5,562 bases of DNA from a virus (IMGVR_UViG_2585427777_000004:1-5562); one strand, 5' to 3'. Shown: positions 394-5,273, counted from the stretch's first letter. The notes: generated from the letters alone by a model not told the origin. Numbers and translations: made by a program.

Positions 394-930
394 TCACTCT
401 CCTTTGATGCGAATGTCAGCGACGCGTAATGCGTGTTCTAGGTCAATCAGGTAAAGCCAACAGCCATTTTCTTTAGGTATCATGACTTGTCGCTCATCTG
501 CATTTATCGGGTGTCCATATCGAAGGTCGTAGCGAGTCGGTAATTGAACTTCCCGCGCTTCCAGTTCAGCAATACGCTTGCACCCATCAGAGATAACTCC
601 CTCGTAATACTCGCGCTGCTCGTTGAGTTTTGATTTTGTCTCCTCAAGCTCAACGCGCAGCTTCCCAACCGTAAGCGCAATATCCTCGTTCTCCTGGTCG
701 CGGCGTTTGATGTATTGCTGGTTTCTTTCCTGTTCATCCAGCAGTGCCAGCACGGTTTCTGGTCCGGTCAGAAATTTGAAGGCGTTGAGCGCATCAATAT
801 CCACACCGTAATCTTTAAGTTCCTGTTCACTTAACAAGTCATCATCAGCTGGCAACATTAACAGGCGTTCCATTGCTGGAATTGCACGTTCCGCCACCTC
901 ACGCAGTGCCTGGTAATTAATTTCGCTCAC
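394..930 (-). CDS. Ead/Ea22-like family prophage protein (178 aa), coiled-coil rich
   Basis: ORF track 394..930 (-). GTG start at 930..928 preceded by AAAGGAGG with 6-nt spacing. The N-terminus MSEINYQALREVAE matches, from memory, the conserved N-terminal motif of Ead/Ea22-like proteins of lambdoid prophages. Central region is rich in charged heptad-like sequence (QERNQQYIKRRDQENEDIALTVGKLRVELEETKSKLNEQREYYEG). GTGA start/stop overlap with the upstream gene. Confidence 0.6.
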   Translation of the reverse strand: MSEINYQALREVAERAIPAMERLLMLPADDDLLSEQELKDYGVDIDALNAFKFLTGPETVLALLDEQERNQQYIKRRDQENEDIALTVGKLRVELEETKSKLNEQREYYEGVISDGCKRIAELEAREVQLPTRYDLRYGHPINADERQVMIPKENGCWLYLIDLEHALRVADIRIKGE

Positions 931-946
931 TGGTTGCCTCCTTTGC
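888..946. repeat. Copy A of a ~59-bp duplicated module (5' end and RBS of Ea22-like genes)
   Basis: gttccgccacctcacgcagtgcctggtaattaatttcgctcactggttgcctcctttgc; about 50 of 59 positions identical to 1573..1631 by hand alignment. Covers the first ~13 codons, GTG start and AGGAGG SD of the 178-aa gene. Confidence 0.6.
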
Positions 947-1433
947 GAAGCTGGGCAGCAAAGTCAACTAACCACTCAGTCATTTCAACCTTCCCTACCA
1001 AGTCTGAACCAGGGTACATACAGCAATCACTCTGCGCCGCTTTGAAATCCTTATACTCATATTCTTGGGCCACCAGATTTTTTGCAGCTTCTATAGCAGC
1101 ATCCACCCCCTGCGCCCGGACTTCAGCCAGGAAAGCATCAGTGGTTGGCGTTTCAGGTATCTGTCTCCTCATCCGTTCTATTGCATGATTGAACCCGAAG
1201 TCTTCCGCGAGAGATACGTCATCCATATTGTCATTGTCATCTTCAATATCCCGTGATTCTGGAATTGCAGACTTTATTCCCGCATTCTCCGCTGCCAGCG
1301 CCGCGCACTTGGCCTCAAGAGCGGCAACCACTTCCTGATGGTCTTTGTACTTAACGTATGAGCCGGAGATGTCATCACCTTCGGTGTTTAGCCATGCGTC
1401 ATTGCAATTCACTGCGTAGGTTCTGATGCTCAT
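927..1433 (-). CDS. Acidic hypothetical protein (~168 aa); start placed at internal ATG 1433
   Basis: ORF track 927..1490 (-). I prefer the internal start at 1433..1431 (MSIRTYAVNCNDAW...) because it has an SD (GGGAGAG, about 7-9 nt upstream) and forms an ATGA overlap with the stop of the 61-aa ORF (TGA 1432..1430). Stop TGA 929..927 overlaps the GTG start of the next gene. Protein is acidic (IEDDNDNMDDVSLAEDFGF). Confidence 0.5.
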   Translation of the reverse strand: MSIRTYAVNCNDAWLNTEGDDISGSYVKYKDHQEVVAALEAKCAALAAENAGIKSAIPESRDIEDDNDNMDDVSLAEDFGFNHAIERMRRQIPETPTTDAFLAEVRAQGVDAAIEAAKNLVAQEYEYKDFKAAQSDCCMYPGSDLVGKVEMTEWLVDFAAQLRKGGNQ

Positions 1434-1615
1434 GTTGATGCTCTCCCGCCCCTGACAGACGCCAGGCCAGTCAATAAAGTATCCGCACAATGCCTACCCT
1501 CAGACGTGCGCGCAGGATAAATGCCGTTATGACCCGGCAAAATATATGCTACCCATTCATCTTGCGTTGCCTGTTCCGCCGCCTCGCGCAGTGCCTGATA
1601 GTCAATCTTGCTCAC
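1430..1615 (-). CDS. Short Ea22-like N-terminal-module protein (61 aa); possibly a truncated paralog
   Basis: ORF track 1430..1615 (-). GTG start at 1615..1613 preceded by AAAGGAGG, in a ~59-bp block about 85% identical by hand alignment to the start region of the 178-aa Ea22-like gene. N-terminus MSKIDYQALREAAEQATQDEW parallels MSEINYQALREVAERA. After about 30 residues the sequence loses similarity to the paralog. Confidence 0.4.
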   Translation of the reverse strand: MSKIDYQALREAAEQATQDEWVAYILPGHNGIYPARTSEGRHCADTLLTGLASVRGGRAST

Positions 1616-1631
1616 TGGCAGCCTCCTTTGC
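1573..1631. repeat. Copy B of the ~59-bp duplicated module (5' end and RBS of the 61-aa Ea22-like ORF)
   Basis: gttccgccgcctcgcgcagtgcctgatagtcaatcttgctcactggcagcctcctttgc; direct repeat of 888..946 in the same orientation. Confidence 0.6.
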
Positions 1632-1916
1632 CGGGATTTCTAACTTTTGAGTGGTTGTATCAAATTCAAACAACTTAACCACGTCATCAAACAGGACATA
1701 ATCACCATCAGGATTTTCAGTCATATCTGCGCCACAATCCTGACCGCACGAGTCGCAACCATCCATATCAAGCTCGTATCGCTTCAGGTTTGCGATATTT
1801 GATAAATTCAGCGCCAGTACAGCCAGGTCATAAACCTCTTCGGCAGTGACATCGCTGTTCAGTCCCATTTCATGGCGATATATGATTTTTTCTACTCGTT
1901 GTTTTGTGATCGTCAT
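1602..1916 (-). CDS. Acidic hypothetical protein (~104 aa; start uncertain, alternative ATG at 1868)
   Basis: ORF track 1602..1940 (-). Preferred start ATG 1916..1914 (MTITKQRVEK...) with GGAG about 11 nt upstream; an alternative ATG at 1868..1866 lies 1 nt after the stop of the upstream membrane-protein gene. C-terminal half is very acidic (DMDGCDSCGQDCGADMTENPDGDYVLFDDVVKLFEFD). Stop overlaps the next gene start by 14 nt. Confidence 0.45.
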   Translation of the reverse strand: MTITKQRVEKIIYRHEMGLNSDVTAEEVYDLAVLALNLSNIANLKRYELDMDGCDSCGQDCGADMTENPDGDYVLFDDVVKLFEFDTTTQKLEIPAKEAASEQD

Positions 1917-2187
1917 TTTTCTCTTCACTCCGATATACAAGGATTACTACCCCCCCTCTGCTGATTGCGCGAGCTGGATCCCCTGGTTCCATGCCGTCAA
2001 TTCCGAAGGCTTCGGAAAACGCATTCATTGCCTTCTGGCGTTCATCCTGCTTACGGCGTTTATTCCATTTTTTCAGGAACAACAGCGACAGCCACCGTCC
2101 GCTGCAGAACACGATGTAAAAATAACCAAGGAGCGCCAGGCCGACATTCAGGGCCGTTTCTATGGTTAGTTGTGAGTCAGTTGCCAT
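1870..2187 (-). CDS. Small predicted single-pass membrane protein (105 aa)
   Basis: ORF track 1870..2187 (-). ATG 2187..2185 overlaps the last 11 nt of the 279-aa gene (ATGGCAACTGA). Acidic N-terminus (MATDSQLTIET), a ~25-residue hydrophobic stretch (ALNVGLALLGYFYIVFCSGRWLSLLFL), then a basic cluster (KKWNKRRKQDERQK), consistent with positive-inside topology. The antisense plus-strand ORFs here look like shadow frames. Confidence 0.5.
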   Translation of the reverse strand: MATDSQLTIETALNVGLALLGYFYIVFCSGRWLSLLFLKKWNKRRKQDERQKAMNAFSEAFGIDGMEPGDPARAISRGGVVILVYRSEEKNDDHKTTSRKNHISP

Positions 2188-3016
2188 TTCTTACCTGTTT
2201 AAGTAACTGGTTGAACATAACACTTAGGGGATTGCTGTATCCAAACGGCAGATTGTTTACGCAGTACAGAATCATTTTGTTTTTTTCTCCAGTTCGTACT
2301 ATTAACCCATTCCACAATAACCGTGATAATTCATTACTGATAGAAGTTGCGCTTCTTCCAAGTGCGAGGGATATATCTTCTCTACTGCAATCTGGATTTT
2401 CCTGGATATACTCGATAACGGTCATGTGGTCCCTTTTACTTAATATCTGTTCGGATTGCATGCCATGAGCATTCATTTCGTTAATAATTTCATCCAGAAG
2501 GATTTCAAGCCCTTCTCGACCCATATCTGAAAGAATGAAACCTTTATCAGGGGAAGTAGTGAGCATTTTCTGATAAAGAAACAGCGCTCTTCCCATTCCT
2601 TCAGCTTCGCCGTATTTTTGAATTAAATTCCATTCAATATACTGTTGTAAGGCAAATCGAATGGGGCCGGGATATATCGTCATAAACCCATACATCCCGT
2701 TATATACCACGGCGTGTTCAGTTGTTCCGTGTTCATTCAGGATATCAATTGTGCCGTTCTTGTCTTCTTCTTCGTTGATGAATGTCGTCACATACAACCA
2801 TCGCCACTGAGCAACCTTCATCTCAACCGGAAGTTTACCCAGTAATCCTGCTTCGTCGGCTTGCGCCAGACACTGAAGGATACGTAAACCTCGCACATTA
2901 GGAGTATCGAATTCTCCGGCATCCAGACGACGTATGGCGTCGTGATAATCAATCGTCATACTGCCAGTTCGTATACCATTGGCTGTTGCTTCAGCCTGGA
3001 ATTCATCGTATTGCAT
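2177..3016 (-). CDS. 279-aa protein: unrecognised ~200-aa N-terminal domain plus C-terminal winged-helix DNA-binding domain
   Basis: ORF track 2177..3016 (-). ATG 3016..3014 with GAGGA 9 nt upstream; only 5 nt after the stop (TAA 3024..3022) of the 62-aa gene. C-terminal segment DCSREDISLALGRSATSISNELSRLLWNGLIVRTGEKNKMILY follows the helix-turn-helix-wing pattern of CRP/FNR-type C-terminal domains (compare CRP [40 protein letters not shown], recalled). No known motif recognised in the N-terminal 200 aa. Local GC is low (about 33-40% in sampled 60-nt lines). Confidence 0.65.
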   Translation of the reverse strand: MQYDEFQAEATANGIRTGSMTIDYHDAIRRLDAGEFDTPNVRGLRILQCLAQADEAGLLGKLPVEMKVAQWRWLYVTTFINEEEDKNGTIDILNEHGTTEHAVVYNGMYGFMTIYPGPIRFALQQYIEWNLIQKYGEAEGMGRALFLYQKMLTTSPDKGFILSDMGREGLEILLDEIINEMNAHGMQSEQILSKRDHMTVIEYIQENPDCSREDISLALGRSATSISNELSRLLWNGLIVRTGEKNKMILYCVNNLPFGYSNPLSVMFNQLLKQVRNGN

Positions 3017-3021
3017 GATAT

Positions 3022-3210
3022 TTATTCCTCATCTTCATCTTCATCTGCTGGTGCAATAACGTCATATCCTGCCTTTTCTGCAATAAACAGGAATGTTGAA
3101 AGAGTTCCTACAAGTTCATCGTCATGAACATGGCGAATGAATATTACTTTCCCGTTTTTGATGGTCAGCAATATTCTGGTTTGTTCGTGTTCTGCTGTTT
3201 TCTGATGCAT
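3022..3210 (-). CDS. Small acidic protein (62 aa) with poly-acidic C-terminal tail
   Basis: ORF track 3022..3210 (-). ATG 3210..3208 with GGGAGA SD 5 nt upstream. Sequence ends APADEDEDEE. Stop TAA 3024..3022 is followed 5 nt later by the 279-aa gene ATG. Confidence 0.5.
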   Translation of the reverse strand: MHQKTAEHEQTRILLTIKNGKVIFIRHVHDDELVGTLSTFLFIAEKAGYDVIAPADEDEDEE

Positions 3211-3212
3211 TA

Positions 3213-3326
3213 TTATCTCCCGTATGCTTTACGCAGAAATAAGCAGGCAATATGCATGTAATTTTCACCGTATTGTGCAATAAGGCAGGCGGTCTTGTGT
3301 GATGCCATATTCTTTATAAAAGTCAC
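3213..3326 (-). CDS. Candidate small leader ORF (37 aa), not in the supplied track
   Basis: Hand translation of the minus strand: GTG at 3326..3324 preceded by a perfect AGGAGG (3339..3334) with 7-nt spacing; frame reads (M)TFIKNMASHKTACLIAQYGENYMHIACLFLRKAYGR and stops at TAA 3215..3213, 2 nt before the ATG of the 62-aa gene. An internal ATG (3308..3306) would give 31 aa. Evidence is SD strength and tight coupling only. Confidence 0.25.
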   Translation of the reverse strand: MTFIKNMASHKTACLIAQYGENYMHIACLFLRKAYGR

Positions 3327-3404
3327 AATAAAGCCTCCTGTGGATTAAGGTTGTAACAATCCCCGGCGATAAAACCGCAATAAACGTTCAGGGCATATTT
3401 GTTG

Positions 3405-3770
3405 TTATTGCGCTAATTCTTTTTCGGCAGCAGCTTTTGTATACTCACATGCAAAACTCAGAATTTCGCTGCCGAGTGTTTTCGTTTCGTGATTACTGGA
3501 CATATGTAATACCTGTGTTGCATGCAATAAATGATAAACATTTACCGCAAATGAATCAGGCTCCAGACAAATGCCTTCGTAATTATCTTGCTGTGAGGTT
3601 GTTTCTGTCATTGCTCCTGAAGTGCATGCGAGCCTGTTTTTGACAATTCTCTTTTCTCTAATCACTATATCGGCAACATCTATTGCCTTTACAACCTCCG
3701 GGAGAAGTTCCGGGTTTGTATAATCAAAGTCATCAACATGGAGAACAGTTATGTTTTCGAACTTTTTCAT
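3405..3770 (-). CDS. Hypothetical protein (121 aa), acidic, no recognised domain
   Basis: ORF track 3405..3770 (-). ATG 3770..3768 preceded by GAGGAAGCC. Sequence MKKFENITVLHVDDFDYTNPELLPEVVKAIDVADIVIREK... has no motif I recognise. Flanked by non-coding gaps of about 128 bp upstream and 194 bp downstream. Confidence 0.55.
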   Translation of the reverse strand: MKKFENITVLHVDDFDYTNPELLPEVVKAIDVADIVIREKRIVKNRLACTSGAMTETTSQQDNYEGICLEPDSFAVNVYHLLHATQVLHMSSNHETKTLGSEILSFACEYTKAAAEKELAQ

Positions 3771-3785
3771 GGCTTCCTCAGCTGA

Positions 3786-3837
3786 CTTATATGTTCTGCT
3801 ATATAGCGAGTCTCAGAAGTGTTTTCATATTGAGACT
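3786..3837 (-). promoter_or_regulatory. Possible promoter/operator upstream of the 121-aa gene: -10-like TATAAG plus a 7-bp perfect inverted repeat
   Basis: On the minus strand, CATATAAG (complement of 3791..3786) lies about 15 nt upstream of the ATG at 3770. Inverted repeat AGTCTCA (3809..3815) / TGAGACT (3831..3837) with a 15-nt spacer lies just upstream of that. No convincing -35. Confidence 0.3.
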
Positions 3838-3855
3838 GTTTCCGCAATGATTGAT

Positions 3856-3886
3856 AAAAATGTTCGCATGTACCTTGAAGGGCGAA
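3856..3886 (-). terminator. Weak intrinsic-terminator-like hairpin plus T-tract downstream of the 167-aa HTH gene
   Basis: Minus-strand RNA: 5-bp stem (3886..3882 pairs with 3867..3863, UUCGC/GCGAA), 14-nt loop, then CA and UUUUU (3860..3856), starting 13 nt after the stop at 3899. Short stem and long loop, so weak at best. Confidence 0.2.
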
Positions 3887-3898
3887 GCGGCGATTATG

Positions 3899-4402
3899 TC
3901 ACCATTGGTATTGGTTCTTCCGCAGAAGAGCTTCGCGAGATAAGGGGCAAACTTGTTGAGATGCGTCATGGTGTTGCTGCTCCTCACTTTTTGGTTGCTC
4001 CGGAGGAGTAACCTCACCAGTTAACAGGCACATCGGATCGCAGCCAAGAATATTTGCCAGTGGGATAAGCATACTGATAGTTGGTTCATACTCTCCGCTC
4101 TCCCACTGGATGATAATTTCTTCATCGAGATCGAGCAGCCTGGCGAGTTCGGCGGTTGTTAAGCCGCAGGCTTCGCGTTGGGTGCGAAGACGGTTGTTGA
4201 TTGCAGAATTTTTGTTCTGTAAAAGCATTGCTGACGATAGCTTTCTGGATATGCTATTTGTCATATCCCATGCCAGTCCTGCGCATGACTCTATATCGCT
4301 AGAGAGCGTAGCATCAGGTGTTGCTTTTGCTATTAGTGTAATGAGGCTGCCGAGGTTTTTCAGTTCTTCGAGACAGTCAAGAGTTGTAGCTTTATTGATC
4401 AT
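3899..4402 (-). CDS. Atypical HTH (XRE/Cro-C1-type) DNA-binding protein (167 aa) with the HTH in the C-terminal half
   Basis: ORF track 3899..4402 (-). ATG 4402..4400 with GAGGT about 9 nt upstream. Residues ~65-125 (INNRLRTQREACGLTTAELARLLDLDEEIIIQWESGEYEPTISMLIPLANILGCDPMCLLTGE) match the XRE-type HTH pattern (helix, GxT turn, recognition helix, conserved W/E). It is preceded by a ~60-aa N-terminal segment and followed by a ~40-aa Q/E/P-rich tail. Internal ATG at 4228 lacks an SD. The antisense plus-strand ORF 4110..4409 is Ser/Arg-rich low complexity, supporting minus-strand coding. Confidence 0.6.
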   Translation of the reverse strand: MINKATTLDCLEELKNLGSLITLIAKATPDATLSSDIESCAGLAWDMTNSISRKLSSAMLLQNKNSAINNRLRTQREACGLTTAELARLLDLDEEIIIQWESGEYEPTISMLIPLANILGCDPMCLLTGEVTPPEQPKSEEQQHHDASQQVCPLSREALLRKNQYQW

Positions 4403-4445
4403 GAGATGATACCTCAGTTACGAACTTTGTTTTATGGTAACTAAG

Positions 4446-4485
4446 GTATCAAGGTGTGGCAAGTGATTTTTGATACTTTGGTTTC
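4446..4485. promoter_or_regulatory. OL-like operator: inverted repeat GGTATCAA-N16-TTGATACT carrying a copy of the TTGATACTTTGG motif
   Basis: ttgatactttgg at 4470..4481 is identical over 12 bp to 5209..5220 in the OR-like region. ggtatcaa at 4446..4453 is its inverted partner. Lies in the 103-bp gap between the repressor stop (4506) and the start of the 167-aa HTH gene (4402), the position expected for OL/PL. Confidence 0.45.
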
Positions 4486-4505
4486 TTTTTGTGTTTTGTG
4501 TCTGG

Positions 4506-5162
4506 TCAGAAAATATCCCATCTGGCATCAACCACAACACCTACTATTTCGCAATCATTGTCCATTTCTATGATTGGATATTGTGGATTAAGGGGCTTTA
4601 GAAACGCCTTTCCCATGTCAGAAATATATTTTTTGAATGTTGCTTCATTGGTGGATTTTTTTCTGGCGATGACGTAACACCCTGAAAAAACTTCTTTATC
4701 TGGGTTGACAAGGATCGACATTCCTTCAGGAAATGTTATTCCTACGGGCGAAGTCATTGAGTCTCCGTGCACTTCCAGCCAGAACCCCCTCTCACCAGCG
4801 TATTTTACAGAATGCCTCCAATTATCCTGATCATACATGTTGTAGTCATCACCAGAAGTTGCGAATAATCCTGCCTGAACCCAGTTAATTACAGGGTAAG
4901 AGTGTGCTGTGTCTCTCTGTGGGCAGCTCTTAACATTATTTTCCCAATGCTTATCTTTTTCATCTCCGTTCTGAAGCCACTGCGGTGAACACCGCAGTGC
5001 AGCTGCAACTTTAAAAAGGGTGTCACCGTTGAAACTTTTTGTAAGGCCTTGCTCGGCTTTACTTATTGCAACTCTGGTGACCCCAGCTTTTTTAGCCAAC
5101 GCATCTTGTGTTAACCCAGCTTTTTGCCGTGCGTTGATGAGACGTTCACCTAAAGACTTCAT
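4506..5162 (-). CDS. cI: Phage CI/C2-family repressor (218 aa): N-terminal HTH plus C-terminal LexA-like S24 autopeptidase domain
   Basis: ORF track 4506..5237 (-), trimmed to ATG 5162..5160 (MKSLGERLINARQKAGLTQDALAKKAGVTRVAISKAEQG...) which has a strong SD AGAGGAG about 7 nt upstream. By recall the sequence is collinear with P22 C2: HTH GLTQDALAKKAGVTRVAIS, probable Ala-Gly cleavage site in NWVQAGLF, catalytic Ser in HGDSMTSP, catalytic Lys in ATFKK, and a C-terminal block ATFKKYISDMGKAFLKPLNPQYPIIEMDNDCEIVGVVVDAR versus P22 ATFKKLVMDAGRKFLKPLNPQYPMIEINGNCKIIGVVVDAK. Confidence 0.9.
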   Translation of the reverse strand: MKSLGERLINARQKAGLTQDALAKKAGVTRVAISKAEQGLTKSFNGDTLFKVAAALRCSPQWLQNGDEKDKHWENNVKSCPQRDTAHSYPVINWVQAGLFATSGDDYNMYDQDNWRHSVKYAGERGFWLEVHGDSMTSPVGITFPEGMSILVNPDKEVFSGCYVIARKKSTNEATFKKYISDMGKAFLKPLNPQYPIIEMDNDCEIVGVVVDARWDIF

Positions 5163-5273
5163 TTTTCTTCTCCTCTCATGGCTGTTGATACTAAAGTAAC
5201 AGAATTTCTTGATACTTTGGGTTCCTGTGGTTAACATCGTTGGATAACAAAGTATCTGGTGTGAGACTAAAGA
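5163..5273. promoter_or_regulatory. Divergent immunity control region (OR / PRM / PR analogue) with three TTGATAC-type operator-like sites
   Basis: Intergenic region between the repressor start (5162) and the first plus-strand ORF (5274). Sites ttgatactaaagta (5185..5198), ttgatactttgggt (5209..5222) and an inverted partial site ggataacaaagtatc (5242..5256, GATA-N6-TATC). Possible rightward promoter: -35 TTGATA (5209..5214), 17-bp spacer, -10 TAACAT (5232..5237). Promoter calls are by eye. Confidence 0.5.

Follow-up and report, generated by a model that had tools for sequence, protein, structure and literature searches.

The 5,562-nucleotide viral stretch IMGVR_UViG_2585427777_000004:1-5562, referred to below as the window (the whole stretch that was analysed), carries between positions 927 and 3770 a run of small acidic proteins. 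An earlier note on this DNA had described them as strongly acidic products of an early-left operon and had proposed them as host-takeover or anti-defence factors, with the DNA mimics Ocr and ArdA as precedents. The four open reading frames (ORFs) that it listed are present at the places it gave, all on the minus strand, and are named here p168 (927-1433), p104 (1602-1916), p62 (3022-3210) and p121 (3405-3770). Comparison with related phages sorts the run into pieces of Ea22 genes, a shuffled acidic module and a block linked to a regulator, and this sorting narrows the experiments that are worthwhile.

The source of the window is a lambdoid Escherichia coli prophage of the phiP27/Stx1 (Shiga toxin 1) type, and the DNA corresponds to its immunity and early-left (pL) region. 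The window is at least 99% identical to prophages of many E. coli genomes, for example that of O111:H2 strain 12A, in which the segment lies between int/xis beside mlrA and the Rha/replication module; int/xis are on its left and cI/cro on its right. PhiR49_2, Stx1a-converting phages and phiP27 are each identical to the window in part. Among the prophages of pathogenic E. coli, Stx-converting and related ones carry this segment, which is a typical piece of viral dark matter. A LexA-like cI gene occupies 4506-5162 on the minus strand and is followed by an OL/pL region (4403-4505, minus strand) with three operator-like TTGATAC...GTATCAA elements (4407-4483) and a sigma-70-like promoter reading leftward from 4462 to 4434. 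Three further elements of the same kind lie between cI and a cro-like gene (5185-5256), so that cI is flanked on both sides by three operator-like elements, which is the OL/OR layout of lambda. The first leftward gene (3899-4402, minus strand) encodes an L10-type regulator of the Xre family with a helix-turn-helix (HTH) domain (PF01381, E 2.5e-10; phrog_4739 and phrog_4836, 'CII-like regulator'), and no N-like gene was seen downstream of pL. The order L10-L08-L07-L06, in which L08 is the family of p121 and L07 that of p62, is kept in phiP27, ASU11, Stx1 phages and PhiR49_2. Because of the gene order, the operator-like repeats and the leftward sigma-70-like promoter, 'early-left operon' is a fair description, and on these DNA features the genes of the acidic proteins belong to a CI-controlled leftward operon.

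All four proteins are acidic. The isoelectric point (pI) of p104, which contains DMDGCDSCGQDCGADMTENPDGDYVLFDD, is 4.16 with a net charge of -14 (-0.135 per residue), followed by p168 with its IEDDNDNMDD stretch (pI 4.36, net -16, -0.095 per residue), p62, which ends in ADEDEDEE (pI 4.74, net -8, -0.129 per residue), and p121 (pI 4.99, net -8, -0.066 per residue), whose acidity is ordinary for a family with a median pI of 5.0. The clustering of acidic products is real and above chance: in the complete relative PhiR49_2, a pI below 5 was found for six of the eight coding sequences from Ea22 to L10 and for 8 of the 53 elsewhere (Fisher p=0.0012, post hoc), and the 104-aa (amino acid) and 62-aa proteins are the two most negative per residue among its 61 coding sequences. 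The run is broken by basic or near-neutral products, namely a DUF4752 protein (pI 9.4), a 37-aa ORF (pI 9.5) and a 61-aa ORF (near neutral). Computing pI and charge distribution, as the earlier note had proposed, showed the charge to be local rather than protein-wide: p62 has it in a tail of 7 residues, p168 in a linker and p104 in a module of 40 residues. The description of a clustered acidic run (pI 4.2-5.0) thus holds but its strength was overstated, the density being -0.07 to -0.14 per residue as against -0.24 for Ocr, with its 34 acidic and 6 basic residues out of 116 (PMC4872106). None of the four proteins reaches the Ocr value over its whole length, and only residues 46-85 of p104, taken alone, do so at -0.25.

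The pL operon of lambda offers a comparison for what acidity at this position may mean. According to the charges that we computed, 5 of its 17 products have a pI below 5 (Ea22, Ea8.5, Ea10 and two small ORFs), whereas Ral is basic (pI 8.8) and Gam only mildly acidic (pI 5.5). Ral is the anti-restriction protein of lambda and Gam its RecBCD inhibitor, and the acidic Ea22, Ea8.5 and Ea10 are not known to act against restriction. Acidity does not track anti-restriction in lambda, and since Ral is basic and Gam only mildly acidic, anti-defence function is poorly predicted by acidic composition together with an early position.

The largest protein of the run is a fragment. Three ORFs in or beside the run, all on the minus strand, score above the gathering threshold of PF13935 (Ead_Ea22), which is 27 bits: p168 (43.3 bits, profile positions 48-138 only; phrog_368 positions 101-239), the 61-aa ORF p61 (1430-1615; 54 bits, profile positions 1-45 only) and a second, intact gene to the left of the acidic run (394-930; 178 aa, pI 4.68, 126 bits). 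When the reading is 'repaired' across the p61/p168 junction, it aligns in one piece and at 99% identity to phage HZ41, and P1-like phages, in which the gene is likewise intact, align as well. At the split the window reads CATTGTGCGG and HZ41 reads CATTGCGG, a 2-bp duplication of TG that leaves (TG)2 at 1486-1489 (minus strand) where HZ41 has TG once. The HZ41 allele is a single continuous ORF, listed as 246 aa, which matches PF13935 in one stretch (71.8 bits, profile positions 1-114). Because the HZ41 ORF is intact and the window carries the duplication, p168 is encoded by the downstream part of a split Ea22 gene and comprises the coiled coil and the C-terminal domain but no N-terminal segment, and p61 is that segment only, with 43 native residues followed by an out-of-frame tail; at the level of the aligned reading frames the split against HZ41 is proven. 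The N-terminal segment, coiled coil and C-terminal domain stand in a single chain in the 394-930 copy and in separate products in the split one, and the IEDDNDNMDD stretch of p168 is the acidic linker that follows the coiled coil. The same split allele was found, identical, in 33 E. coli records that include chromosomes and P1-like plasmids of about 110 kb, and it is tolerated or still useful. The start of p168 has its own Shine-Dalgarno-like GGGAGAG, then ATG.

Ea22 has been described as pro-lysogenic and tetrameric, in lambda and Stx phages only, and as mosaic, its host partner being unknown (PMC10834534; PMC7093339), and the family acts on host survival and on the lysis-lysogeny decision (PMC7093339, PMC10834534). 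Its C-terminal domains are predominantly acidic regardless of sequence (PMC10834534), and the acidity of p168 is a family trait that had been described before for Ea22. The window genes share with the Ea22 genes of lambda and Stx phages the early leftward position near xis/int, the mosaic build from an N-terminal segment, a coiled coil and a variable C-terminal domain (PMC10834534) and a close charge density (-0.077 net charge per residue in lambda Ea22, -0.079 to -0.095 in the window ORFs). They differ in that one copy is divided by the 2-bp insertion into 61-aa and 168-aa products, in that the window contains no exo, bet or gam gene, so that it is not a classical exo-xis region, and in C-terminal domains that are unlike the solved one of lambda Ea22, without a sequence match in the Protein Data Bank (PDB). 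The intact gene at 394-930 is 51 nt longer than its annotated counterpart in the closest complete genome (L001 6394-6879). The best genome match consists of two aligned pieces that cover 96% of the window, which would fit mosaic exchange within Ea22 genes.

The protein with the highest charge density, p104 (phrog_3126, no Pfam match), is a shuffled unit of two modules that here stands alone. A helical leader (residues 1-45, near neutral with a net charge of -1) is followed by a Cys-loop module that is acidic (net -10 over residues 46-85) and by a tail predicted to be disordered. Its close homologues are all unnamed, and a profile search of 1.84 billion representatives gave 115 relatives in which the two modules are shuffled independently; two long repeat proteins among the matches, P0221 and P0237, were discarded as compositional artefacts. 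The longer relatives number 60; DUF551 forms the end of 8 of them, Ead_Ea22 is found in 5, DUF3850/ASCH in 2 and a dATP/dGTP pyrophosphohydrolase in 1. The central module has the consensus R-Y-x-L-D-M-x-G-C-D-S-C-G-Q-D-C-G-A-D-M-x-E-D-x-D-G-x-Y-V-L-F-D-D-V with C54 and C61 invariant, its acidic residues are conserved in the family alignments and a net charge of -7 to -11 is kept across relatives of 30-40% identity. Pfam searches with p104 at E<=10 returned noise only, and the Cys-loop module is without a Pfam model. An AlphaFold2 (AF2) model built on a diverse alignment reached a predicted local distance difference test (pLDDT) value of 71 (about 60 in the loop) and shows two helices, the Cys loop, a hairpin and a helix; fold comparison with this model returned no similar solved structure and none of the Ocr/ArdA-type mimics.

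The distribution of the p104 unit is broad among phages. The Cys-loop module is found by itself as well as in fusion with effector domains of various kinds, both in temperate lambdoid and P22-like phages and in phages for which integrase and repressor are not annotated. The two-module unit is more than 70% identical in siphoviruses of the Skatevirus type, namely Salmonella phage Pu29 (L011 400-747), which has no annotated integrase or repressor, and Bas80 (L009 3501-3848). In these phages the unit lies beside 'EaE' among clustered small genes, divergent from the replication genes. Because the module is present in phages without an annotated integrase or repressor, its role cannot be purely lysogenic. 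With the 'ea' proteins of P22-like and lambdoid phages (EaE and DUF551 proteins), p104 shares the leader and Cys loop, which there form the N-terminal part before DUF551, Ea22, ASCH/DUF3850 or dATP/dGTP pyrophosphohydrolase domains, as well as the proximity to EaE-annotated genes in Skatevirus phages; unlike them it is the module pair only and lacks an effector domain at its C-terminus. Plasmid records with p104 numbered only 7, and every one was classed as non-mobilizable. Among the proteins of the run, p104 is the only one that may still plausibly interact with a host factor through its charge. That its Cys loop of about 40 residues is an undescribed portable host-targeting module, one that might use charge mimicry, possibly in a metal-dependent way, to bind a host or defence protein which itself binds nucleic acid, we regard as a long shot; if the module does prove functional, it would be a new portable interaction module.

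The product of the L08-family gene, p121 (phrog_5451), is related to the regulator encoded upstream of it. All 121 residues, including the N-terminal half, are conserved down to 44% identity, and because the whole protein is conserved the 68-aa RefSeq call (3405-3611) is probably too short. Residues 62-115 of p121 match the N-terminal domain of the PhiR49_2 L10 protein by BLASTP (43% identity, E 9e-10), a p121 homologue matches ASU11 gp50 (57% identity, E 8e-18), and profile-profile alignment (hhalign) of the C-terminal half with the L10 N-domain gave a probability of 94.6% (E 6.9e-8). A direct BLASTP of p121 against the window's own L10 gave no match, the homology being seen with other L10 alleles and with profiles only, and Pfam searches with p121 gave no HTH match and only noise even at E<=10. 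By these alignments p121 is a domain paralogue of L10-type regulators, its C-terminal half corresponding to the L10 N-domain, and not a member of that family. It resembles the general class of truncated, HTH-less regulator paralogues in keeping a copy of the N-domain without the HTH, and differs from them in a conserved N-terminal half, about 55 aa long, that belongs to p121 itself. We infer that p121 may partner or antagonise L10, or share its ligand. Co-variation of alleles between the two was absent: among phages that differ in the L10 N-domain (three alleles), p121 keeps 94% identity. A functional pairing of p121 with L10, if true, would add a layer of control to the induction of phiP27/Stx-type prophages. 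The p121-L10 paralogy and the acidic Cys-loop module without a Pfam model are the only two points that are modestly new here.

For p62 (phrog_340, a small family of 26 clusters) the acidity is confined to its end. The neutral core of about 54 aa has a net charge of -1 (residues 1-54), and the other -7 lies in the C-terminal D/E run, which varies in length. The homologues of phiP27 and ASU11 end in IIPPAKEQTL, have a pI of 6.7 and carry no acidic tail, and a Klebsiella homologue shares a common core of only about 40 residues, without the acidic tail pattern. Since the tail length varies and diverged homologues lack the tail, acidity is not a conserved property of the p62 family. The tail is coded at 3022-3045 by a GAT/GAA repeat, ranges from 3 to 11 residues among alleles and looks like the outcome of repeat slippage. 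The p62 gene lies directly upstream of the phrog_1515 gene in E. coli phages, and both genes are found in the early-left region of a Klebsiella phage. A PHROG hint of similarity between p62 and the C-termini of anti-repressors (E 5e-6) was followed by comparison with the Rha and Ant proteins of the prophage and its relatives, which gave nothing, and it is a weak lead only; Pfam searches with p62 at E<=10 gave noise only.

Ocr and ArdA are elongated dimers whose carboxylates form a helical array that traces the phosphate backbone of B-DNA (PMC4872106, PMC2731889). The window proteins share with Ocr (T7 gp0.3) and ArdA small size, acidity and early position, and p104 has its 40-residue module at an Ocr-like charge density; they differ in lacking sequence, profile or, for the p104 model, fold similarity and in carrying their acidic residues in a tail, a linker or a loop. 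Sequence and profile searches of the PDB gave no match for p168, p104, p62, p121 or a 279-aa ORF (2177-3016, see below), and an NCBIfam scan gave nothing specific for the run. In PADLOC-DB 2.0 no match was obtained for p168, p61, p104, the DUF4752 protein, p62 or p121, and the only matches were generic HTH/winged-helix ones, obtained with L10 and with the C-terminal end of the 279-aa ORF. The DNA-mimic reading of the earlier note is thus not borne out: three of the four proteins are better explained otherwise, p168 as a fragment of a frameshifted Ea22 gene, p62 by a lineage-specific variable tail and p121 as a paralogue of a regulator domain, and nothing was found in these results to indicate DNA mimicry or anti-defence activity.

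We consider it doubtful that at least one acidic protein, most plausibly p104, is an anti-defence factor, either a DNA mimic directed against restriction or BREX-type enzymes or another early inhibitor of host immunity. The genes are early in the operon and belong to a mosaic segment with high turnover, and no competing known function or fold was found for p104. The Ocr-like charge of its module and the retention of that charge across relatives are what such a factor could show, yet the whole-protein density is about half that of Ocr and the acidic stretch is a Cys loop and hairpin with C54 and C61, which looks less like carboxylates in an extended helical array than like a knuckle that binds metal or mediates an interaction. 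The occurrence of the unit in phages without an annotated integrase or repressor means that lytic growth is served too, which would suit anti-defence, whereas the few, non-mobilizable plasmid records and the behaviour of acidity in the lambda pL operon do not.

Another explanation is that several of the ORFs are decaying, functionless remnants and that their acidity is inherited composition only. In addition to the split Ea22 gene, the window has a second disrupted frame, the 279-aa ORF at 2177-3016 (minus strand), which fuses a phrog_1515 protein to a MarR-like winged-helix gene. In relatives the two parts are separate genes, whose products are a phrog_1515 protein of 193 aa (pI 4.6) and a MarR-like winged-helix protein of 84 aa, and the fusion results from a 1-nt deletion between 2449 and 2450, the missing base being one T of a T run. 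The segment occurs in 121 complete E. coli genomes, and all of them have the base; the fusion reflects either a mutation specific to this strain or a sequencing error in the homopolymer. A neighbouring ORF is also marked as frameshifted in RefSeq. Nevertheless, p104, p62 and p121 are conserved at the protein level down to 30-50% identity across genera, and the split Ea22 allele is unchanged in its 33 records, its second half having a ribosome-binding-like site and start of its own, so that decay seems to us an unlikely account. Quite improbable is a prophage exclusion, defence or toxin-antitoxin-like cassette formed by the 37-aa ORF, p62, phrog_1515 and the MarR-like gene, placed like lambda rexAB/sieB and not serving counter-defence, for although the genes stand close together, stops nearly touching starts (3213/3210; 3022/3016), include a winged-helix partner and a weak PHROG match to a Ren-like exclusion protein (E 2.6e-4), and phrog_340 and phrog_1515 occur together in early-left regions of Escherichia and Klebsiella phages, the PADLOC matches are weak and concern the generic winged-helix part only, no NCBIfam assignment was obtained, and a position downstream of the CI-repressed pL should leave the cassette silent in the lysogen unless there is an internal promoter, none of which scored above shuffled expectation.

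Taking the identity of the genes, their place in the operon, the mosaicism, the frameshift, the paralogous domain and where the charge lies as established by these comparisons, we favour, with about as much doubt as confidence, the view that the acidic proteins are protein-binding accessory or regulatory factors of the Ea22 kind that act on the developmental decision and on host physiology. The run is the accessory part of the CI-repressed pL operon and comprises two blocks. The conserved block, beside the immunity region, consists of L10, L08 (p121), L07 (p62), L06 (phrog_1515) and the MarR-like gene, members that look regulatory; within it p121, as a copy of the L10 N-domain without a DNA-binding domain, could pair with or titrate L10 or a shared partner. 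The other is a hyper-mosaic 'ea' block of DUF4752, p104 and the three Ea22-family ORFs, assembled from shuffled modules: the leader helix pair, the acidic Cys loop, the coiled coil and the variable acidic C-terminal domains. By analogy with the Ea22 proteins of lambda and Stx phages, these proteins may be oligomeric protein binders. Soon after infection or induction they would associate with proteins of the host or the phage and tilt both development and host survival; they would not mimic DNA. Of the earlier proposal of host-takeover or anti-defence factors, the part that stands is that these are early-left, CI-repressed, non-structural and mosaic accessory genes, with a family, Ea22, that acts on host survival; the anti-defence and DNA-mimicry part is unsupported.

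Several points weigh against this view. Yeast two-hybrid surveys found no Ea22 partner (PMC10834534), and our literature search found no paper naming p104, p62, p121 or phrog_1515. Homologues of p104 occur in the Skatevirus phages Pu29 and Bas80, for which integrase and repressor are not annotated, the two frame-disrupting changes in the window suggest weak selection on some genes, and structure prediction covers p104 only, with moderate confidence.

The remaining features lie between or beside these genes. The DUF4752 gene (1870-2187, minus strand; PF15944, E 7e-37) encodes a small basic protein (pI 9.41) with a hydrophobic N-terminal segment. It overlaps the p104 gene by 47 nt (1870-1916) in a different frame, and only the tail of the DUF4752 protein past the Pfam match is affected. 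Literature searches on the RefSeq protein accessions, the PHROG numbers and DUF4752 found no paper, and an Rfam scan of the window found no RNA family. The basic 37-aa ORF (3213-3326, minus strand) abuts p62 and is annotated in related phages. On the plus strand an 86-aa ORF (3751-4011) overlaps the 3' end of the L10 gene, and the annotation of phiP27 has a plus-strand 'L09' in the equivalent gap. The sign of the GC skew switches around 3600-4400.

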